From contig NDHX01000004.1 in the NCBI GenBank assembly GCA_013626165.1, positions 64,565 to 128,564 on the forward strand: DNA of 64,000 bases, given 5' to 3'. Each line of letters opens with the position of its first letter. Positions within the stretch are counted from its first letter, which is position 1. The stretch is from Candidatus Velesiimonas alkalicola (GTDB lineage: Bacteria; Omnitrophota; Gorgyraeia; Velesiimonadales; Velesiimonadaceae). The translations under genes were made by a program, and so were the position numbers. Below the pieces are notes generated by a model. That model was given only the letters and a program-made list of their open reading frames with translations, searched no databases and had not been told where the DNA came from. Below are positions 996-60,786 of this stretch, piece by piece.

Positions 996-1042
996 GACAT
1001 TTTTTTATATTCTATGGTGCTCTGTCAAATAAATAAAGGTAT

Positions 1043-1123
1043 GATTACACAGATTAGTTTAGATTACACAGATAAAGATTGCTGTCGAAATCTGTGTAAT
1101 CGGATTTAAAAATCTGTGTAATC
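1043..1123. repeat. 80-bp palindromic 'GATTACACAGAT' element, copy 1 (2 direct + 2 inverted 12-mers)
   Basis: gattacacagat x2 then atctgtgtaatc x2; between dxr and rseP. Confidence 0.8.
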
Positions 1124-1167
1124 AATGCAATCCTTATTTTGTTTTCAATGCAGTATAGGAGAGAAAA

Positions 1168-4637: not shown

Positions 4638-5149
4638 AAAGGTTTTTATTTATATTTGTTTTATTTATCTATGGGTGTGGATATACCACAAGGCCAGGGG
4701 TTGCCCCTGATTTCAAAACCATATACATAGAACCATTTACAAACAGTATAGATATTACATCTGAAAGAACCAACATAAGACACCACAGAACATCCATTGC
4801 AGGTATTGAGGTGCTTGTTACAAAAAACATTGAAGATGTTTTAAAAAGAGATGGAAGGCTGAGGCTTGTAAAAAAAGATCAGGCTGATGTTATAATGACC
4901 GGATCTGTTCTTTCGTTTAACAGAGAGGCCCTCAGATACAATCCAGATGGAACCATAAGAGAATCAAGAATACATATCACAACACAGGTTGCTATTAGAA
5001 CAAAATTAGGTGAAACACTGTGGACTGAAAATATAAGCAACCGATTAGGAAGTACCTTTGCAGGTGCTACAACAGACATTTCTGCGCTGAATAGTGCGAT
5101 ACAAGACCTTTCAATAAAAATAAGAAACCGCCTGCTTGAAGATTGGTAA
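4634..5149 (+). CDS. LPS-assembly lipoprotein LptE-like
   Basis: 171 aa, signal peptide with lipobox-like IYGCGY followed by TTRPG and IYIEPFTN pattern typical of LptE N-terminus. Confidence 0.5.
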   Translation: MKRFLFIFVLFIYGCGYTTRPGVAPDFKTIYIEPFTNSIDITSERTNIRHHRTSIAGIEVLVTKNIEDVLKRDGRLRLVKKDQADVIMTGSVLSFNREALRYNPDGTIRESRIHITTQVAIRTKLGETLWTENISNRLGSTFAGATTDISALNSAIQDLSIKIRNRLLEDW

Positions 5150-13793: not shown

Positions 13794-14150
13794 ATGACAG
13801 ACCTTTTATCGCAGATAAATCAAATATCAGACCCTAAAAATCTGACTGATATTGAAAAAAAACATACACCTGTTATAACAGCGCCTGATTTTATAAAACC
13901 GGAACAACCTATAACAGTTATCATTGAAGTAGGTAGGCTGGCTTCGCATCCAAACGAGATAAATCACTTTATAGGATTCATAGAACTCTACCAGAACGAT
14001 GTTTTTATCGCAAGAGTTGATATGTCCCCTTCCAGAATAAATCCGAAAGTAATATTTGAGATAATACCAAAATATCCTGGAATGTTAAAAGTAATTGCAG
14101 GTTGCAATATTCACGGTGTATGGCAGGCAACAAAAGATTTGACATTGTAG
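13794..14150 (+). CDS. superoxide reductase (neelaredoxin/1Fe-SOR type)
   Basis: EKKHTPVI (EKHVP-like) motif, His ligands and C-terminal CNIHGVW (CNxHGxW) motif. Confidence 0.75.
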   Translation: MTDLLSQINQISDPKNLTDIEKKHTPVITAPDFIKPEQPITVIIEVGRLASHPNEINHFIGFIELYQNDVFIARVDMSPSRINPKVIFEIIPKYPGMLKVIAGCNIHGVWQATKDLTL

Positions 14151-14160
14151 TACTTAAAAA

Positions 14161-14196
14161 GGTGCACCAGCGCACCAGAGCACCAGAGCACCAGGG
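14161..14196. repeat. tandem GCACCAGN repeat block, flanked by a 31-bp direct duplication of the SOR gene 3' end (14128-14158 and 14197-14227)
   Basis: caacaaaagatttgacattgtagtacttaaa occurs twice on either side of the block. Confidence 0.85.
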
Positions 14197-14264
14197 CAAC
14201 AAAAGATTTGACATTGTAGTACTTAAAGAGCGCATTGCATAATTACTCATAGAACTGGTGTTCT

Positions 14265-14365
14265 GGTGTCTGGCGCACTGGTGTCTGGTGCTCTGGTGCT
14301 CTGGTGCCCTGGTGCCCTGGTGCTCTGGTGCCCTGGTGCCCTGGTGCCCTGGTGTCTGGTGCTCT
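14265..14365. repeat. tandem CTGGTG(N)(N) repeat block (~13 units; inverse orientation of GCACCAGN)
   Basis: ctggtgtt ctggtgt ctggcgca ... ctggtgcc ctggtgcc; can pair with block 14161-14196. Confidence 0.85.
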
Positions 14366-14388
14366 AAAAGGCAGGAAGGTGAGTTAAA

Positions 14389-15780
14389 ATGTCTGATCCA
14401 CTGTTAAAGGAATACATAAGTATCTCAGAGATTGTAGGCCCACTGGTCTTGATAGAGGGTGTTGAAGGAGTAAAATACGGGGAGATTGCAAATTTTATTC
14501 TTCCTGATGCTCAGATAAGAACAGGGAAAGTGTTGGAGGTTAGTTATGATAAGGCTCTTGTTCAGGTTTTTGAAGGAACAAGAGGAATGGACATTGGAAC
14601 GAGCAGGATAAGATTTTTAGGAAAAGGTATAACATTTGGTGTCTCTGCTGATATTGTTGGAAGAATATTTGACGGTATGGGAAGACCTAAGGATAAAGGA
14701 AAAAGTCCTATACCAGACAGGCGGGCTGATATAAATGGGAATCCTATAAATCCTCGGTCGCGGGATTATCCTTCAGAATTTATACAAACCGGAATCTCTG
14801 CAATAGACGGACTTAATACACTTGTAAGAGGACAGAAACTTCCGATATTCTCAGGTTCAGGGTTGCCGCATTCCAATATTGCCGCTCAGGTTGCAAGACA
14901 ATCAAAAGTTTTAGATGAACAGGGAAGCTTTGCAGTTGTATTCGGTGCAATAGGTATAACATTTGAAGAAGCAGAGTTTTTTATATCAGACTTTAACCGA
15001 ACAGGTGCCATAGAAAGGGCTGTTCTTTTTATAAATCTTGCAGATGAGCCGGCCATAGAAAGGATTTCAACCCCTCGGATGGCATTAACGACCGCTGAAT
15101 ATTTAGCATTTGAACTTGATATGCATGTTCTTGTAATACTTACAGACATCACATTTTATTGTGAAGCACTAAGAGAAGTGTCTGCTGCAAGAAAGGAGAT
15201 ACCGGGAAGGAGGGGGTATCCGGGCTATCTTTATACAGACCTTGCCACACTGTATGAAAGAGCGGGGCGTTTAAAGGAAAAAAAAGGTTCAATAACACTT
15301 ATCCCTGTTCTTACAATGCCTGATGATGACAAGACACATCCCATACCCGATCTTACAGGTTACATCACAGAAGGACAGATTATGGTAAGCCGTTCTCTTC
15401 ACAGAAAAGGTGTATATCCGCCCATAGATGTGCTTCCCAGTCTTTCCAGATTAAGAGACAAGGGCATAGGAAAGGAAAAGACAAGAGAGGACCATCCGGA
15501 TGTTGCCAACCAACTATTTGCATGCTATGCAAGAGGCAAAGAGGCAAAAGAGCTTGCGATCATACTCGGCGAATCTGCGCTTTCAGATATAGACAAACTG
15601 TACTCTTCTTTTGCGGACGAATTTGAAGAAAAATTTATCCGACAAGGGCAAGATGAAGAAAGAACCATAAGTAAGACACTTGATACAGGATGGAAAATTT
15701 TAAACAAACTTCCCAAGGGAGAATTAAAGCGCATCAGGATAGAGTGTCTTGACAAATATTATAAAGAGTCTGTTGTATAA
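14389..15780 (+). CDS. V/A-type ATPase subunit B-like protein (orphan)
   Basis: Degenerate non-catalytic P-loop region [21 protein letters not shown] typical of V-type B subunits (no GxxxxGK[ST]); no other V-ATPase subunits in window. Confidence 0.7.
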
Positions 15781-21677: not shown

Positions 21678-22156
21678 AAAAACTTGCGCATCTTTTTTCA
21701 ACAGTATTTTTTGCAGGATATATTCCGTTTGCTCCCGGAACTTTTGCAAGTTTAATAGGACTTTTATTTGTATATACTCTGTCAAATATCTCTGTTTTAG
21801 TCTACTTTATCATAGGTTTATTTATATTTTTTATAGGTTTTCTTTCAATAGACTTGTCTTTAAAAGATTTAAAAACAGATGACCCAAAGCAGATTGTTAT
21901 AGATGAGGTAATGGGAATATACATAACATTTTTTGCGGTTAAGAAAACATTGCCTATACTTTGTATCGGATTTTTACTTTTTAGATTTTTTGATATAACA
22001 AAGGTGTTTTATATTAAAAAATTACAAAAAATTCAAGGCACAATGGGTATAATAATTGATGATATAGTATCGGGTTTGCTTGCAAACATAATTCTTAATA
22101 TCATAAGTATTGACCTTTGTATAAATGATAAATGGGGTCAACTCTATTTTCTCTAA
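21674..22156 (+). CDS. pgpA: phosphatidylglycerophosphatase A
   Basis: PgpA-like N-terminus FFAGYIPFAPGTFASL; coupled to pgsA. Confidence 0.75.
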   Translation: MKKLAHLFSTVFFAGYIPFAPGTFASLIGLLFVYTLSNISVLVYFIIGLFIFFIGFLSIDLSLKDLKTDDPKQIVIDEVMGIYITFFAVKKTLPILCIGFLLFRFFDITKVFYIKKLQKIQGTMGIIIDDIVSGLLANIILNIISIDLCINDKWGQLYFL

Positions 22157-22270
22157 AAAACCAATGTAGTATTATTAAAAAAAGAAAATAGAGTTGACCC
22201 CATTTATCCCCCAGTTGCCTGCTCTTATGGAATTATGCAACGGGCTCATAACATTAAAGAAGAGTGTGCT

Positions 22271-38443: not shown

Positions 38444-40441
38444 TTGAGTAATCTTGTAATAGTAGAATCTCCTGCAAAGGCTAAAACCATAGGGAAGTTT
38501 CTTGGGACAAACTATACCGTCAAAGCATCTATGGGACATGTTATAGATTTGCCGGGCAACAGAATGGGAATAGAAATAAGTAATGAAAAAATAGGAGAAC
38601 CTGAATATGTAGTAATAAAAGGGAAAAAAACCGTGCTTACAGAATTAAAAAAAATTGCGAAAAATTCAAATGTATATATTGCAACAGATCCAGACAGAGA
38701 AGGTGAGGCAATAGGCTGGCATATCTTAAATTACATTAAGGCTGAAAATCCCAGGAGAATACTTTTATATGAAATAACAAAAGAAGCCGTTCAATATGCA
38801 ATCGAACATCCATCCTTGATAGACAATAATAAGGTTCAGTCCCAGCAGGCAAGAAGAATACTTGACAGGGTTGTTGGCTACTCAATAAGTCCGATATTGT
38901 GGAAAAAAGTGGGCAGGGGTTTAAGCGCAGGCAGGGTCCAATCTGTTGCAGTGCGGATTATTGTTGAAAGAGATAGGCAGATAAGGGCATTTGTTTCGGA
39001 AGAATACTGGACAATAGATGCTATATTTTCTAAATTAAACAATGAGGTATTTACTTCTCGTCTTGATAGAATACAGGATGAGAAAATAAACATTAAAACA
39101 AAACAACAGGCAGATGGTATTATCGCCAGAATTAAAGGGTGTAAAAAATTTTCTGTATCTGATATAAAAATTACAGAAAAAAAGAAAAATCCATCCCCTC
39201 CTTTTATAACAAGTCAATTACAGCAGGTAGCATTTAATAAATTTCATTTTCCTGCTATAAAAACTATAAAGATTGCACAGACACTTTATGAAGGGCTTCA
39301 GATAGGCAGCAAGGAACAGGCTGGACTTATTACATACATCAGAACAGACTCTGTTAGGTGTTCAGAATCAGCAATCAAAGATGTAAGAAAATTTATTGGG
39401 GAAAAGTATGGAGATGGGTTGTGTCCCGAATCGCCCAACAGATATAAATCAAAAAAAACCGCACAGGAAGCACACGAGGCAATCCGCCCGACATCTGTTT
39501 ATAGGACACCCGATGATATAAAGCAAAACCTAACAGAAGAGCAATTTAAAATCTATGAACTTATATGGCAGAAATTTGTTGCAAGTCAGATGAGTCCTGC
39601 TATATTTTCTCAAATAAGAATTGAAATTACAGGTATAAACAATCAGGACAAATTTCTTTTTGTCTCAACTGGTTCTGTGCCTGTGTTTTTAGGTTTCCTT
39701 TCCGTTTATCAGGAGGCTGACAAACGGGGATTGGAAGAAAAAAGTGAAGGTGAAATAAAAATCCCATCTTTTACAAAAAATGAACAGGTTGAATTGAAAG
39801 AGTTAAAATCGGGTCAGCATTTTACGCAACCGCCGCCCCATTATACAGATGCAAGCCTTATAAAAGCACTTGAAGAAAAAGGTATAGGAAGGCCATCTAC
39901 ATATGCGGGCATACTTCAAGTAATCGTTAATAGGGGGTATGTGAAGAGAGAAAAGGGGGCACTTCTTGCAACAGAGATAGGAGAAATAGTTACCGATATG
40001 CTTATAAAATCTTTTCCCAATATTTTAGATGTTAAGTTCACAGCACAGATAGAAGATGAGCTTGACATCATTGAGCAAGGTAAAACAAAGTGGGATGCAG
40101 TTATCTTAAATTTTTACAGGCCGTTTAAGATTTCTCTTGATAATGCCGGGAGAGATATGCAAAACTTTAAAAAAATAGAAGTGAAAACCGATAAAAAGTG
40201 TGAAAAGTGCCAAAGCCCAATGGTTATAAAATGGGGAAGAAATGGTAGATTTATTGCCTGTTCGGCATACCCGTCTTGTAAAAATACAAAGTCCATAGGA
40301 ACAGGTGTGAAGTGTCCGTCACAAGACTGTGGGGGCGAACTTGTAGAAAGAAGAGCAAGGAAAAAAGGAGCAAGGCTCTTCTACGGTTGTTCAAGGTATC
40401 CCGAATGTAAATTTGTCACCTCATATTTGAAAAAAATATGA
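38444..40441 (+). CDS. topA: DNA topoisomerase I
   Basis: TOPRIM start LVIVESPAKAKTIGKFLG, active-site Tyr region, C-terminal Cys4 zinc ribbons. Confidence 0.9.
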   Translation: MSNLVIVESPAKAKTIGKFLGTNYTVKASMGHVIDLPGNRMGIEISNEKIGEPEYVVIKGKKTVLTELKKIAKNSNVYIATDPDREGEAIGWHILNYIKAENPRRILLYEITKEAVQYAIEHPSLIDNNKVQSQQARRILDRVVGYSISPILWKKVGRGLSAGRVQSVAVRIIVERDRQIRAFVSEEYWTIDAIFSKLNNEVFTSRLDRIQDEKINIKTKQQADGIIARIKGCKKFSVSDIKITEKKKNPSPPFITSQLQQVAFNKFHFPAIKTIKIAQTLYEGLQIGSKEQAGLITYIRTDSVRCSESAIKDVRKFIGEKYGDGLCPESPNRYKSKKTAQEAHEAIRPTSVYRTPDDIKQNLTEEQFKIYELIWQKFVASQMSPAIFSQIRIEITGINNQDKFLFVSTGSVPVFLGFLSVYQEADKRGLEEKSEGEIKIPSFTKNEQVELKELKSGQHFTQPPPHYTDASLIKALEEKGIGRPSTYAGILQVIVNRGYVKREKGALLATEIGEIVTDMLIKSFPNILDVKFTAQIEDELDIIEQGKTKWDAVILNFYRPFKISLDNAGRDMQNFKKIEVKTDKKCEKCQSPMVIKWGRNGRFIACSAYPSCKNTKSIGTGVKCPSQDCGGELVERRARKKGARLFYGCSRYPECKFVTSYLKKI

Positions 40442-42384
40442 TATTTCATCTCAAAAGTCCATACAAACCTGTTAGTGATCAGCCCTCTGCTATTTATTTC
40501 CTGTCAGATGGTATTAAAAAAAATATAAGATATCAGACACTGCTTGGCGCAACCGGCACAGGAAAAACATTTACCATTGCAAATGTAATCTCTAATATTG
40601 ATAAACCCGTCCTTGTAATATCACACAACAAAACACTTGCCGCACAATTATACAGAGAGTTCAAAGATTTTTTCCCCAGCAATGCAGTAGAATACTTCAT
40701 AAGTTATTATGATTATTACCAGCCCGAAGCATATATCCCGCAGACAGACACATATATTGAAAAAGACGCAACCATAAACGAAGAAATAGACAGACTTCGT
40801 CTTAAAGCAACAAGCAGCCTTATTACAAGAAGAGATGTGATTGTTGTTGCAAGCGTTTCCTGTATATATAACCTCGGTGAACCTTCCGAGTATGAGGGAG
40901 CACACTTAAATATAAGCGTCGGACAGACTATACCGATGGAGGATATTTTAAAAGAGTTTGTTAGTCTTCGCTATAACAGAGACGAAACAGGGTTTAAGAG
41001 AGGTATTTTTAGGGTAAGAGGGGATGTTGTTGAAATTTTTCCGTCATATGAGGAAACCCCTTTCAGGATAGAATTTTTTGGCAACAGAATAAAAAAGATT
41101 TCTCTTATAAAAACAGACGGGGCCTTTGTTTCAAACCTTGAAAAACTTTTTCTTTATCCAGCAAAACATTTTGTTGTATCACAAAATAGATTTCAAGATG
41201 CCCTTGACTCTATAAGAGAGGAACTTAAAAAAAGAGTAAAAGAACTTTTATCTGCGGGTAAAGAAATGGAGGCAAACAGGTTAAAAACAAGAACAGAATT
41301 TGATATTCAGATGCTTGAAGAAGCAGGGGTCTGTAATGGCATAGAAAACTATTCTAGACATTTTTCCCGCCGTCCAGCAGGAAGCCGTTCCTATGCGCTT
41401 CTTGATTATTTTCCAAAAGATTTTCTTACCATTATTGATGAATCACATGTTACAATCCCTCAGATTCGGGGAATGTATAATGCAGATAAATCAAGGAAAC
41501 AAACACTCGTTGATTTTGGTTTCAGACTTCCGTCCTGTATGGATAACAGGCCATTAAAATTTGAAGAATGGGATATGCTTACACCTCAATGTATATTTAT
41601 GTCTGCAACCCCCGGTGGATATGAACTGACGAAAAGTTTAGATAGAATTATTGAGCAAATTATAAGACCCACGGGACTTGTTGACCCAAAGATAGAGGTT
41701 CGCCCGATAAAAGGACAGATAGACGATATTATAAAAGAATGTAAAAACAGGATAAAAAAAGAACAAAGGGTGCTTATAACAACACTTACAAAAAAAATGG
41801 CAGAAGAATTGTCCAGGTACCTTGAAGAAATGGGTATAAAGGCAAGATATATACATTCCGATTTAAATGCATTTGAAAGAGTTGGCATCCTGAAAGATTT
41901 GAGGCTCAGAAACATAGATGTGCTTGTAGGAGTGAATCTTTTAAGAGAAGGGCTTGACCTTCCGGAGGTTTCTCTTGTTGCTGTTTTTGATGCTGATAAA
42001 GAGGGGTTCTTAAGGTCAAAAACCTCGCTGATACAGGTTTCTGGAAGAGCCGCAAGAAATATTGACGGAAGCGTTATACTGTATGCCGATACAATCACCG
42101 ATTCAATGAAAGAGGCATCAAAAGAATCGGAAAGAAGAAGAGTTGTGCAGATACGATATAATAAGCAACACAATATAAAACCGAAAACAATCCAGAAGGC
42201 GGTTAAAAATTATCTTGACACCTATGAGAAAAACCAGATCTCAAAGGTGACAGATAACATAGCCTACTACAAGGAAAAAAATATACAAAAACTTGAAGCA
42301 GAAATGAAAAGGACTGCAAGAGAACTAAACTTTGAAAAAGCAGCTTTGATAAGAGATAGAATAAAACAATTAAAAAAAGTTTGA
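40438..42384 (+). CDS. uvrB: excinuclease ABC subunit B
   Basis: Helicase motifs (GATGTGKT), C-terminal UVR motif ALIRDRIKQLKK. Confidence 0.9.
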   Translation: MIFHLKSPYKPVSDQPSAIYFLSDGIKKNIRYQTLLGATGTGKTFTIANVISNIDKPVLVISHNKTLAAQLYREFKDFFPSNAVEYFISYYDYYQPEAYIPQTDTYIEKDATINEEIDRLRLKATSSLITRRDVIVVASVSCIYNLGEPSEYEGAHLNISVGQTIPMEDILKEFVSLRYNRDETGFKRGIFRVRGDVVEIFPSYEETPFRIEFFGNRIKKISLIKTDGAFVSNLEKLFLYPAKHFVVSQNRFQDALDSIREELKKRVKELLSAGKEMEANRLKTRTEFDIQMLEEAGVCNGIENYSRHFSRRPAGSRSYALLDYFPKDFLTIIDESHVTIPQIRGMYNADKSRKQTLVDFGFRLPSCMDNRPLKFEEWDMLTPQCIFMSATPGGYELTKSLDRIIEQIIRPTGLVDPKIEVRPIKGQIDDIIKECKNRIKKEQRVLITTLTKKMAEELSRYLEEMGIKARYIHSDLNAFERVGILKDLRLRNIDVLVGVNLLREGLDLPEVSLVAVFDADKEGFLRSKTSLIQVSGRAARNIDGSVILYADTITDSMKEASKESERRRVVQIRYNKQHNIKPKTIQKAVKNYLDTYEKNQISKVTDNIAYYKEKNIQKLEAEMKRTARELNFEKAALIRDRIKQLKKV

Positions 42385-42506
42385 CAATAAAAGAAGTGCA
42401 AAATAAAACGAGAAAATAAAACTATTGAAGAAAGTTATGTCATTGTCGTACAAGTAGATTTCCGCACGGAGTTATTTAGGGTCTGCTGAAAAACTCATCA
42501 GACCCT

Positions 42507-42588
42507 GATTCCACAGATTAAAAAGCAGATTACACAGATTAAAACCCGATGACAAAATCGGTGTAATCTTTCAAAAATCTGTGTAATC
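42507..42588. repeat. 'GATTACACAGAT' element, copy 2
   Basis: Shares ...gtgtaatctttcaaaaatctgtgtaatca with copy 3; downstream of uvrB. Confidence 0.8.
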
Positions 42589-43120
42589 AGGGCTTACTGA
42601 AAAATTTACATCTGTCAAAAGTGCAAGGTTTTTACATAAAAAGAACAAAAAATCGTGCACTTTTAGCGCTATTTTTGTGGTTTAAATCGCTTAATTTCCG
42701 TCGTAGTATCCAAATTTTTAGCATTTTTCAGTAAGCCCTATTTATTAAGTTAGAAAAGAAACAATGCTTATTGTGGCGGTAATGTATCTTGACAGAAATT
42801 TTCAGTTACCATTGGCGGCAAATGTCAGATGGCAGCAGGTGAGATCTTACGCTCCTTTATCTTTTGGAGCTATAGCTATTTCCAAAAGAAGTTAGATGCG
42901 GATGAAGTATTTAGGTTAGCTATGCCAAAGAACAAACAGCTTAGGTTAAACTATGCTGTTACAGGGTAAAAAGACTAAATTTGCCAAAGTTTAGCTGTAC
43001 ATTAAGTTCGTATAATATGCAACAAAAGGTCGATATTATACATTCAATTCGTATAGAAACGAGTTATATGAAATTGCTTTTAATTTGAGAATTATAAAAT
43101 AAAATTGGAGGAATGGAAAA

Positions 43121-43315
43121 ATGGACGTGAAAGAATTAATCGCCAAGGAGATAGAAAATGTTCCTGAGCCCTATCTCATGGAGATACTGGATTTTATCCG
43201 ATTTTTAGAGACTAAGGCTTTGGAACAAAAGATGGAACTTGCATTAGCAAGTGAAGCGTCTCTTAAAAAAGATTGGCTGAAGCCTGAGGAGGATGAAGCA
43301 TGGAAAGATTTGTAA
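43121..43315 (+). CDS. DUF2281-like antitoxin
   Basis: 64 aa, EILDFIRFLETK motif, overlaps downstream toxin gene by 16 nt. Confidence 0.6.
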   Translation: MDVKELIAKEIENVPEPYLMEILDFIRFLETKALEQKMELALASEASLKKDWLKPEEDEAWKDL

Positions 43316-43632
43316 AAGGGGATGTAGTAGTCGTTCCTTTCCCTTTCTCAGATTTAACCCGAGCTAAAAGACGACCGGCTTTGGTAATCGCAGAGTTAGA
43401 AGGTAATGATCTGATTCTTTGCCAGATAACCAGTCAGTCTATTAGAGACAGATACGCAGTTTTAATTGACAAGAATGATTTTGAAACCGGGACGCTTAGG
43501 CGAAAAAGTAATGTGCGACCTAACCGCATATTCACAGCAGATCGTCACATCATCCTGTATCGAGTTGGTCATCTTAAACCTAAAAAGATCGATCAGATAA
43601 TTGAGAGGATAGTATCTATCCTTCGGCAATAA
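43300..43632 (+). CDS. MazF/PemK-family type II toxin endoribonuclease
   Basis: GDVVVVPFPFSDLTRAKRRPALVI PemK/MazF signature. Confidence 0.75.
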   Translation: MERFVKGDVVVVPFPFSDLTRAKRRPALVIAELEGNDLILCQITSQSIRDRYAVLIDKNDFETGTLRRKSNVRPNRIFTADRHIILYRVGHLKPKKIDQIIERIVSILRQ

Positions 43633-54495: not shown

Positions 54496-54619
54496 TTTTT
54501 ATAATATTAGGTCGTTGAAAAAGTTATCAACGGTCCTGATTGCACCAATTTTAAAAAACGAGGACACAGATAACATCGTCGGAACTTAACCTGTGTACTC
54601 TTGTTTTTAATCTGTATAA

Positions 54620-55474
54620 TCAAAAATTGTGAGGGGATTTTTCAACAACCTCAATATATGAAGATAGTGCATCTGCCCATCTCCGTAATTTAAGCCCTAT
54701 TTTTTGAAGATAAATGCTTTTTGATGCAACAGACATCCCTCTGTCTGCCGGAAGATTAAAAAAAGATGATAAAACAGGTATAACCTTAACATCAGAATGG
54801 AGTATCTTAACTATCTGTTTTGCCATTTCATATCTTGAACATATACCATCGTTGGTTATATGATAAATTCCGAATCTGTCGGTTTTAATCAAGGCTCTTA
54901 TTGCTTCTACCAAATCAAATGTATATGTGGGGCTCCCCCTTAAATCATCAACAGCTTTTATTGTTTTTTCTCCTTTTTTTATCTGTGAAACAATTTTACC
55001 TACAAACTTTTTATCTTTTGTCCCTCCTCCAAAAAGCCAGCAGGTTCTTACAATATAAAACCTTTCAAGCATAGACCGAATTATCTTTTCACCTTCAATC
55101 TTTGTCTTACCATAAAAATTTACAGGGTTAGGAATATCTTCTTCGGTATAAAATTCTTTCTTACCGTCAAACACCTCTGTTGTGCTTATAAAGACAGGTA
55201 TTGTATTATATTTTTTACAGGCAATAGCAATATTTTCTGTTCCTTGTATGTTGTATCTTCTTGCCAACCCCTGTTCTTTTTCGCATCTGTCAACATCGGT
55301 CATTGCCGCAAGATGAATAACAAAATCGGGTTTTATTTTTTCAAAAACATCCCGCACATTTTTTTTATCTGTAATATCTAGGCTTTTTCTGTCCGTGGGG
55401 AAAATCTCGCCCTTATCAAAAATAACAGAACAATAACTTCCAACCACACCCTGTGAACCGGTTATAAGTATCAT
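54620..55474 (-). CDS. rmlD: dTDP-4-dehydrorhamnose reductase
   Basis: Short-chain reductase with YGKTK catalytic motif; context with rmlABC. Confidence 0.65.
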   Translation of the reverse strand: MILITGSQGVVGSYCSVIFDKGEIFPTDRKSLDITDKKNVRDVFEKIKPDFVIHLAAMTDVDRCEKEQGLARRYNIQGTENIAIACKKYNTIPVFISTTEVFDGKKEFYTEEDIPNPVNFYGKTKIEGEKIIRSMLERFYIVRTCWLFGGGTKDKKFVGKIVSQIKKGEKTIKAVDDLRGSPTYTFDLVEAIRALIKTDRFGIYHITNDGICSRYEMAKQIVKILHSDVKVIPVLSSFFNLPADRGMSVASKSIYLQKIGLKLRRWADALSSYIEVVEKSPHNF

Positions 55475-60552: not shown

Positions 60553-60647
60553 AGAAGATAATTTTTTAATGTAAAAGTTAGAAATATCTAACATAGTTAT
60601 ATATCTAAAACAAATAGGGCTTCACAAAATTCGTTTAAGCCCTATTG

Positions 60648-60728
60648 ATTACATTGATTAAAATTCAGATTACACAGATTAAATGCCGTCGAGACCATCT
60701 GTGTAATCTTTCAAAAATCTGTGTAATC
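60648..60728. repeat. 'GATTACACAGAT' element, copy 3, flanked by 15-bp inverted repeats agggcttcacaaaat / attttgtgaagggct
   Basis: Between dtxR-family gene and feoA. Confidence 0.8.
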
Positions 60729-60786
60729 AACAGCCCTGAGCTAATTTTGTGAAGGGCTGTCTAAAACAAATGAAAGGAGGGGTAAA

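Follow-up and report, generated by a model that had tools for sequence, protein, structure and literature searches.

What are the palindromic elements of about 80 bp that recur between the genes of Candidatus Velesiimonas alkalicola? The question arises in a 64,000-nucleotide stretch of this genome (contig NDHX01000004.1, positions 64,565 to 128,564, hereafter the window), in which the original prediction had described a family of three copies, each with two direct and two inverted 12-mers, and had offered three explanations: a miniature mobile element, a structured RNA or a four-site operator for a dimeric regulator. All three copies were found where it had placed them, but the family has four members in the window, the fourth being decayed. 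The layout of two direct sites followed by two inverted sites was also recovered, although several of the 12-mers in copies 2 and 3 are inexact. The common unit is TGATTACACAGATT / 6-9 nt / GATTACACAGAT / 16-17 nt / ATCTGTGTAATC / 8-10 nt / AATCTGTGTAATCA; the cores are 83-86 bp long and non-coding, and the composites measure 144-260 bp. In this study, we believe that the elements are non-autonomous derivatives, similar to miniature inverted-repeat transposable elements (MITEs) or to REPINs (REP doublets forming hairpins), in which the 12-mers act as protein recognition sites, and we put the probability of this whole explanation at roughly 0.7.

The 12-mer is strongly over-represented in the window. 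Nine exact matches were found, compared with about 0.015 expected from an estimate based on composition. At up to two mismatches, 19 matches were observed against 6.2 ± 2.2 expected, and none of 100 shuffles reached 19.

In other genomes, a GxxExxY nuclease gene lies between the same repeats

At L118 (Chitinophagales) and L048 (a delta-proteobacterial metagenome-assembled genome, MAG), a distance of 350-450 bp separates the direct from the inverted pairs, and an open reading frame (ORF) of 121-122 aa occupies it. This ORF matches PF13366 PDDEXK_3 (E 1e-31 to 5e-34) and TIGR04256 'GxxExxY protein' (E 3e-33 to 3e-36), and the D...ExK catalytic residues D67, E77 and K79 are invariant in the cassette protein. 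The gene is also flanked by repeats in L079, and decayed remnants between repeats are present in L106 and L038; a weak remnant-like match in L013 has no 12-mer within 250 nt.

To avoid the sampling bias, 80 metagenomic loci were selected solely for the similarity of their proteins. At 80/80 of these loci, inverted 12-mers were present with their start 3-26 nt 3' of the ORF, and direct 12-mers within 160 nt upstream were present at 76/80, two of the other four having no upstream sequence. The wrong orientation was seen in a single case. The cassettes carry 1-6 copies upstream and 1-4 copies downstream; the TAA stop of the ORF lies inside the extended repeat (TTT/TAATCTGTGTAATC), and the ribosome-binding site follows the last upstream repeat. 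The gap from the last direct to the first inverted site was bimodal: 57 units fell at 13-25 nt and 79 at 341-420 nt. Among the intervals longer than 60 nt, 83/97 showed GxxExxY similarity, and the other 14, in which ORFs were not examined, gave no sign of a second cargo. The window copies share the direct-then-inverted 12-mers and the 21-22 bp phasing of cassettes with GATTACACnGAT flanks, but no GxxExxY ORF lies between their arms. The bimodal gap and the 16-17 nt between the window arms place the window palindromes in the gene-less class, and they are very probably gene-less derivatives of the GxxExxY cassette family.

The family of the nuclease is very broad. A superfamily survey gave PF13366 no known function and noted that it had been transferred between divisions several times (PMC3424549). 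The profile of one GxxExxY subfamily matches 17,277 clusters at 50% identity. The cassette protein has no sequence relative in the PDB and no match in PADLOC, and the PHROGs search returned just a weak Cas4-like match, for a classical GxxExxY member. Many relatives of about 260-280 aa hold two tandem GxxExxY domains (P0248, P0256, P0258 and others).

The 12-mers are conserved and are probably independent sites

Selection was evaluated on 26 unique orthologous rpsK/cassette/rpsD sequences. The mean pairwise identities of the 12-mers and the spacers were 87-97% and 64-73%, respectively, and the third codon positions of GxxExxY and rpsD were 63-65% identical. Codon positions 1, 2 and 3 of GxxExxY were 88, 93 and 65% identical, respectively, and the cassette and rpsD distances were correlated (r = 0.48, Mantel p = 0.0005). 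Judged from these sequence comparisons, the results show that the cassette has been inherited vertically in the rpsK/rpsD lineage and that purifying selection acts on the protein as well as on the 12-mers.

Across 411 and 542 sites, all positions of the 12-mer except position 9 were more than 90% conserved, figures that are somewhat inflated because the search tolerated two mismatches; the flanks of the sites are A-rich. Sites in the same orientation were spaced at 21-22 bp in 311/445 cases. The covariance check across the facing arms that the original prediction had called for revealed no covariation: at position 9, the arms matched in 10/102 informative inner pairs, no better than permutation. 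The fixed positions, the 21-22 bp phasing and the lack of arm covariation fit arrays of independent sequence-specific protein-binding sites. Folding was strong, with -25 to -36 kcal/mol and z from -6 to -9.5 (copy 4, z = -3), and such folding is expected of any palindrome; nothing indicates selection acting on pairing.

Gene-bearing cassettes lie inside operons on the strand of their neighbours; of the adjacent genes, 69/70 downstream and 46/60 upstream were co-oriented. Recurrent junctions were rpsK/rpsD, pstB/phoU and histidine kinase/response regulator, and P0042 was always found in the order rpsM-rpsK-GxxExxY-rpsD-rpoA. In 22/494 arrays, a host ORF of at least 80 codons that lies upstream ends on the TGA of the terminal TGATTACA; such ORFs include rmlD (window copy 4), rpsK (L051) and histidine kinases in several loci, and further arrays that supply a host stop are, for example, those of L174, L183 and L196-L199.

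Gene-less composites have moved in other genomes

Hairpins stand directly against about half of the element ends, at an offset of 0-1; the stems of these hairpins vary, and their outward loops are T-rich. In several groundwater MAGs, one composite family consists of a hairpin, four sites and a second hairpin, 139 bp in total. The hairpin-end motif had no occurrence at the sampled loci other than beside 12-mer cores.

Gene-less composites that are 90-100% identical occur at unrelated loci, where the 120-bp flanks are at the random level. In one genome, L062 and L095 carry 100% identical composites with different flanking repeats. These copies show, as far as alignment can tell, that gene-less composites have moved recently in other genomes. 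Target-site duplications were examined by a hairpin-anchored comparison of flanks with mismatched pairs as the null; direct repeats of at least 5 bp flanked 5/11 units compared with 2.7% of the mismatched pairs, and most were YTAN-like. An automatic finder of terminal inverted repeats and target-site duplications that relied on exact extension, which is too strict, found no duplications.

For the window, the original prediction had proposed a check of the flanks. Copy 2 lies within a 260-bp unit (42479-42738) with TATTTA on either side, and the Elusimicrobia MAG L016 has the same composite flanked by two copies of TAATTA. Copy 3 lies in a unit at 60616-60759 that is flanked by a 12-bp duplication, TCTAAAACAAAT. 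The flanks of copy 1 were inspected, and no target duplication was found there. The mobile reading had been said to fall if only three copies existed, if their flanks bore no signatures and if their positions were conserved in all relatives; instead, there is a fourth copy, there are related loci elsewhere, and direct repeats flank two of the copies. Among the three explanations offered at the outset, the miniature mobile element is the best supported, by the inverted hairpin ends, the direct repeats and the 90-100% identical units elsewhere.

Elements of the window

The features of the four copies are given in Table 1. The copies span stages of decay, from the perfect copy 1 to the decayed copy 4.

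Table 1. Palindromic elements of the window with their 12-mers, terminal hairpins and flanking repeats
Feature	Position	Description
Copy 1, core	1042..1124	TGATTACACAGATT-6 nt-GATTACACAGAT-16 nt-ATCTGTGTAATC-9 nt-AATCTGTGTAATCA
Copy 1, 12-mers	1043-1054 +, 1062-1073 +, 1090-1101 -, 1112-1123 -	all four exact
Copy 1 subfamily, left extension	1024..1041	GTCAAATAAATAAAGGTA; same sequence flanks the equivalent element in Planctomycetia MAG L031 (alignment)
Copy 1 subfamily, right extension	1125..1149	ATGCAATCCTTATTTTGTTTTCAAT; conserved in L031 too
TATTTA direct repeat, left of copy 2 composite	42473..42478	putative target-site duplication
Copy 2 composite, terminal hairpin / inverted-repeat end	42479..42505	GGGTCTGCTGAAAAACTCATCAGACCC
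Copy 2, core	42506..42589	downstream of uvrB (40438-42384)
Copy 2, 12-mers	42507, 42528, 42557 -, 42577 -	1 mismatch, exact, 1 mismatch, exact
149-bp module nested in copy 2 composite	42590..42738	16-nt inverted repeats GGGCTTACTGAAAAAT / ATTTTTCAGTAAGCCC at 42590-42605 / 42723-42738
TATTTA direct repeat, right of copy 2 composite	42739..42744	putative target-site duplication
Copy 4, flanking hairpin	54510..54536	GGTCGTTGAAAAAGTTATCAACGGTCC; 'GTTGAAAAA' type, as in a composite family of Deltaproteobacteria MAGs
Copy 4, core (decayed)	54537..54622	1-3 mismatches per 12-mer; between rmlD and the GT4 glycosyltransferase gene
Copy 4, 12-mers	54538, 54560, 54589, 54610	GATTGCACCAAT (3 mismatches), GAGGACACAGAT (2), ACCTGTGTACTC (2), ATCTGTATAATC (1)
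Direct repeat, left of copy 3 composite	60604..60615	TCTAAAACAAAT, 12 bp
Copy 3 composite, left terminal hairpin	60616..60643	AGGGCTT-CACAAAATTCGTTT-AAGCCCT
Copy 3, core	60646..60729	dtxR/feoA spacer
Copy 3, 12-mers	60647, 60668, 60697 -, 60717 -	first with 2 mismatches (GATTACATTGAT), others exact
Copy 3 composite, right terminal hairpin	60731..60759	CAGCCCT-GAGCTAATTTTGTGA-AGGGCTG
Direct repeat, right of copy 3 composite	60760..60771	TCTAAAACAAAT; then feoA ribosome-binding site and GTG start (60787)

Pfam assignments of the neighbouring genes (dxr/rseP, uvrB, dtxR/feoA and rmlD/GT4) bear out the intergenic positions that had been named for copies 1, 2 and 3. The window contains no rRNA, and all four copies lie between protein-coding genes. 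The right end of copy 1, in the dxr/rseP spacer, is 44 nt 5' of the rseP ATG (1168). The minus-strand rmlD ORF (54620-55474) takes its TGA stop from the terminal TCA of copy 4 (54620-54622).

The one-mismatch 12-mers of copy 2 read GATTCCACAGAT and ATCGGTGTAATC. The identical 3' half of copies 2 and 3 is real and amounts to 29 nt, and the same 29-mer occurs in L016. The inverted-repeat pair reported beside copy 2 exists as well; it bounds the 149-bp module, whose outer arm is the right end of the copy 2 composite. By contrast, the 15-bp inverted repeats around copy 3, described as perfect, agree at 13/15 positions (AGGGCTTCACAAAAT compared with the reverse complement AGCCCTTCACAAAAT); a stem of three pairs is flipped rather than mismatched. 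The loop of the right hairpin of copy 3 mirrors that of the left hairpin, and the stem is flipped with its pairing kept. The 149-bp module carries an internal AAAGTGCA...TGCACTTT inverted repeat and is also found in L016 (3790-3940), its position conserved and its sequence partly so.

Scans for sigma-70-like promoters and intrinsic terminators around copies 1 and 3 gave none inside the elements. The idea of a mobile promoter was dropped, as position 2 of the TGTAAT within the 12-mer is not the A that is essential in a -10 box. The DnaA box, Pho box, LexA box, IHF site and CodY box did not fit the 12-mer. Rfam 15 gave no match at or near the elements at the gathering threshold or at E <= 5, and none in nine relatives, gene-bearing ones included. 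The genome paper on candidate division NPL-UPA2 bacterium Unc8 ('bacterium Unc6'), to which the window belongs, describes a MAG of about 1 Mb from a serpentinising spring and has no mention of repeats (PMC6305446). In two draft assemblies with identical RseP, runs of N lie exactly over copy 1 (L121 2733-2950; L122 2713-2970), which indicates that the repeat breaks short-read assembly.

Other repeats were observed in the window. At 14128-14367, directly 5' of a gene starting at 14389, a second and unrelated element with the same layout consists of four tandem 8-mers GCACCAG[ACG] (14164-14196), about 55 nt, and about 14 inverted CTGGTG[CT][CT] units (14255-14367); a direct repeat of about 31 bp, CAACAAAAGATTTGACATTGTAGTACTTAAA, at about 14129 and 14198 brackets the GCACCAG[ACG] array. 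This element may likewise be a cassette that lacks its gene, with repeats of a different family. At 22127-22208, a perfect 26-nt inverted repeat (GATAAATGGGGTCAACTCTATTTTCT and its complement, 30-nt loop) lies between two plus-strand ORFs. Downstream of copy 2, at 43121-43632, Pfam identified a small toxin-antitoxin-like pair, in which the 64-aa DUF2281 protein overlaps the 110-aa PemK/MazF-like toxin.

Distribution among bacteria

The pattern GTGTAATC-N5-12-AATCTGTGTAATCA was scanned against one genome per species of bacteria and archaea. The matches comprise at least 120 loci, with about one expected by chance according to our own estimate. By their record titles, the matches listed fall into more than 15 phylum-level groups. 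Deltaproteobacteria (about 30) and Omnitrophota (about 20) are the most frequent, followed by Elusimicrobia (16), Bacteroidota (10), Planctomycetes (9) and Nitrospirae (7), and the matches further include Patescibacteria, Atribacterota, WOR-3/Stahlbacteria, Desantisbacteria, Aerophobetes and others. These names are the depositors' MAG labels, and mis-binning is possible for some of the contigs. A case in point is L021, which is labelled as a Nanoarchaeia archaeon and carries two composites that are 96-99% identical to those of groundwater 'Deltaproteobacteria' MAGs, pointing to mis-binning or to very recent transfer.

Two direct followed by two inverted sites was the commonest architecture (45 clusters), and 58 clusters had a pair in one orientation only. 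The genes beside the elements are unrelated housekeeping genes (rseP, recJ, hisS, proS, pstA, obg, serA, a TonB receptor and others), and many half-elements lie 6-45 nt 5' of a start codon. About 1 Mb of sequence flanking 120 loci contained no recurrent transposase family. An apparent enrichment of UvrA near the elements was a false lead, the cluster consisting of ABC ATPase paralogues. Among 2.9 million viral contigs, only 3 matches were found, so phages are no obvious vector.

Smaller repeats were seen within the elements of other genomes. In three MAGs, a small GC-rich hairpin (CCTGCCTGTCGGCAGACAGG-like) is inserted in the element loops (L016 4030-4075, L069 about 4990-5030, L074 about 2810-2840) and looks like a further nested mini-repeat. 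At L065 2650-2740 and L088 800-890, the direct pair of 12-mers is separated from the inverted pair by another nested repeat, a dispersed hairpin of the GTCATTCC[CT]G...GGGAATGAC type.

Other protein families with the same layout

'Classical' GxxExxY genes carry a different short repeat, C[AG]CA[AG]AG, in 6/7 loci (for example ACGCAGAGA / TCTCTGCGT; arrays at L206, L209, L210, L212, L217 and L218). Their hosts are Ignavibacterium, Chloroflexi, Saprospiraceae, Bacteroidales/Bacteroidia and an archaeon related to anaerobic methanotrophs (ANME). In the simplest cases, the repeats are direct upstream and inverted downstream; at L217 (the ANME-related archaeon) and L218 (Bacteroidia), they build complete palindromic units without a gene of their own, and the GxxExxY gene has such units on both sides. 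A CACAGA core is common to the classical repeat and the 12-mer.

PF05635, a four-helix-bundle family, was first found inside the intervening sequences (IVSs) of 23S rRNA. Its '23S rRNA IVS protein'/bAvd-like genes have arrays of a GTGGTC[AG] heptamer upstream and inverted arrays downstream, and these cassettes lie between co-oriented operon genes (E1alpha/E1beta; ddl/beta-lactamase; L229 480-1010, L230 480-1090). This family served as a potential falsifier, since the same repeats there would rule out the nuclease as their reader. The repeat differs, which supports family-specific recognition. On the evidence of these arrays, and of a single 12-mer at loci labelled as more than 15 phyla, the repeat follows the protein family and not the host.

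Proposed explanation and its alternatives

A full cassette consists of 1-6 direct copies of (T)GATTACACnGAT(T), a promoter-less PD-(D/E)XK 'GxxExxY' ORF of about 122 aa and 1-4 inverted copies, and sits in host operons on the same strand as its neighbours. In the short form, the ORF is absent, which leaves about 16 nt between the direct and inverted pairs. Hairpin-forming inverted ends often cap the cores on either side, and we suggest that the hairpin-capped composite is the unit that moves and makes short target-site duplications. The 12-mers would be bound, most likely by the element's own GxxExxY protein, which would act in cis where the cassette is complete and in trans where its gene is missing, and this binding would serve the persistence or movement of the element. 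Having neither promoter nor terminator, the element would be tolerated between operon genes, and it could even supply the stop codon or the ribosome-binding context of its neighbours. For the narrower claim, that the 12-mers are bound by the nuclease and that it mobilises or maintains the element, we would offer slightly less than even odds.

Several observations weigh against this explanation. The binding of the repeats by the protein is deduced from co-occurrence and co-variation, and tblastn found no GxxExxY similarity anywhere in the 64-kb window of this genome of about 1 Mb. The AlphaFold model of the cassette protein is mediocre (pLDDT 69), and Foldseek gave no match for it at E <= 0.001. 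PD-(D/E)XK enzymes hydrolyse DNA and are not known to carry out strand transfer. PF05635 cassettes do without a nuclease, so nuclease activity is not a general principle of the architecture. The duplications lie outside the flanking hairpins and not at the 12-mers, which means that a separate transposase may move the composites, and their length varies (4-6, 8 and 12 bp). Finally, the gene-bearing cassette at rpsK/rpsD is stably inherited with no target duplication seen, and for this cassette a maintained resident fits better than an active transposon.

The palindrome could instead work at the level of RNA, as an IVS-like element that is co-transcribed and whose long stem is cut by RNase III or the GxxExxY protein, or stabilises the flanking mRNA. 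Co-orientation with the downstream gene within operons (69/70), a stop codon and a ribosome-binding site built into the repeats, flanking hairpins that keep their pairing through flipped or compensated stems, and the same layout around PF05635 genes are all in its favour, and the long bipartite hairpin of the original prediction is plausible as a fold, given the z-scores of -6 to -9.5. However, the facing arms do not covary at position 9, a bare stem would not fix 11/12 positions across phyla, and the spacers are A-rich on both arms of one strand and hence not complementary; there is also no Rfam match, and the decayed window copies pair poorly, as copy 4 illustrates. We consider this an unlikely main explanation, though a role mainly as an intercistronic processing or stability element is plausible as a secondary and non-exclusive reading that is compatible with a mobile origin. 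Far less credible is the operator reading, in which the four sites would serve a transcription factor of the host, such as a metal regulator at dtxR/feoA. The place of copy 3 between dtxR and feoA, the phasing of the sites and the many half-elements shortly before start codons would suit it, but the downstream genes share no function across many phyla, the 12-mer has no dyad symmetry, the window copies range from perfect to decayed, the element travels with target duplications, and no sigma-70-like promoter overlaps the sites. Neither a coherent regulon nor dyad half-sites, as in the DtxR/IdeR box, were found, and we regard the operator as highly improbable.

An ordinary MITE remains to be weighed, in which a conventional transposase, for example an IS5-like DDE enzyme, reads the outer hairpin ends, and the 12-mer core and the GxxExxY gene are passengers. 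The duplications outside the hairpins, mostly of 4-6 bp and of the YTAN type (GTTAAC, GCTAA, TTAG), and the identical copies at different loci are what such an element would leave. The composite ends read AGGCTGTTGAAAAAG, which may resemble the IS903 end GGCTTTGTTGAATAAATC. Against this stand the lack of a recurrent transposase family in the flanks of the 120 loci, the restriction of the hairpin-end motif to places next to 12-mer cores at the sampled loci, and duplication lengths more varied than expected of a single DDE enzyme. Moreover, the hairpin stems differ wholly between lineages while the 12-mers are fixed, and vertical inheritance of the cassette does not free the 12-mers from selection. 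We judge the ordinary MITE less probable than the RNA reading, and return to the non-autonomous derivative with protein-bound 12-mers as the preferred explanation.

Relation to known systems

The layout is closest to REPIN-RAYT and MITE/insertion sequence pairs, and the lifestyle is closest to rRNA IVSs and free-standing homing endonuclease genes. The defining feature of each is lacking here: there is no HUH transposase and no recognised transposase, the elements are not in rRNA, and there is no single homing site. With REPIN-RAYT systems, the elements share inverted doublets of short repeats in a palindromic, hairpin-forming, non-coding intergenic unit, one small enzyme gene flanked by the same repeats in inverted orientation, stable vertical retention and gene-less units presumed to be acted on in trans. 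Unlike in those systems, the flanked gene is a PF13366/TIGR04256 PD-(D/E)XK nuclease and not an IS200/IS605-type HUH/Y1 transposase, non-palindromic 12-mers are iterated at 21-22 bp in place of single REP hairpins, the 12-mer occurs in more than 15 phyla rather than one lineage, and the composites have target duplications.

Bacterial MITEs such as Correia/NEMIS, RUP, ERIC and Nezha are likewise small and non-coding, with inverted ends, target-site duplications, many intergenic copies that are co-transcribed with their neighbours, and a longer gene-bearing relative with the same ends. The elements described here are short and non-coding, have terminal inverted repeats and near-identical copies at unrelated sites, and differ in that their duplications are of non-uniform length, the conserved part is internal (the 12-mers) with extreme hairpin ends that vary between lineages, and the longer form with the same repeats encodes a PD-(D/E)XK nuclease with no recognised transposase.

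The IVSs of 23S rRNA (S23p/PF05635) also have an optional small ORF within stem-forming inverted repeats, are inserted in a transcribed unit without disrupting it and come in gene-bearing and gene-less sizes, and PF05635 genes show a direct array, an ORF and an inverted array in operons. The window copies, unlike IVSs, lie between protein-coding genes, and the cassettes have a nuclease cargo and another repeat motif. The free-standing homing endonuclease genes of phages (Seg/Mob, 'intronless homing') resemble the cassettes as small promoter-less nuclease genes that persist in an operon, between conserved genes and on their strand, but they have neither iterated inverted repeats nor gene-less palindromic derivatives and target one cognate site, whereas the insertion sites here are many. 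Integron gene cassettes (ORF + attC) are promoter-less single-ORF units transcribed by read-through, with an imperfect inverted-repeat site that folds as a hairpin. In contrast to them, the present cassettes have no integrase, attI or cassette array, have repeats on both sides of the ORF and are scattered singly among housekeeping operons.

In the literature that could be searched, which is incomplete so that an earlier description is possible, we found no account of the 12-mer, of the classical repeats or of the association between repeats and GxxExxY. The GxxExxY/PDDEXK_3 family is very large, and its link to derivatives without the gene and to a specific DNA motif under strong selection gives it a working hypothesis: a protein-plus-repeat element living inside essential operons. 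The finding also puts a name to intergenic repeats of a common kind, at which MAG assemblies break, and the 12-mer is a simple marker of horizontal exchange among uncultured phyla. The parallel with the four-helix bundle links the finding to the old question of what rRNA IVSs are. As a tentative proposal that we consider less likely than not, GxxExxY and four-helix-bundle 'IVS protein' cassettes may form an undescribed class of operon-dwelling elements, in which the protein recognises the family-specific repeats around its single small ORF (direct upstream, inverted downstream) for maintenance or spread; a PD-(D/E)XK nuclease would stand in place of a DDE or HUH transposase, and the gene-less palindromes would be the non-autonomous members. 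If this is true, most bacterial phyla would contain members of the class, and the existence of two large protein families of unknown function would be accounted for.

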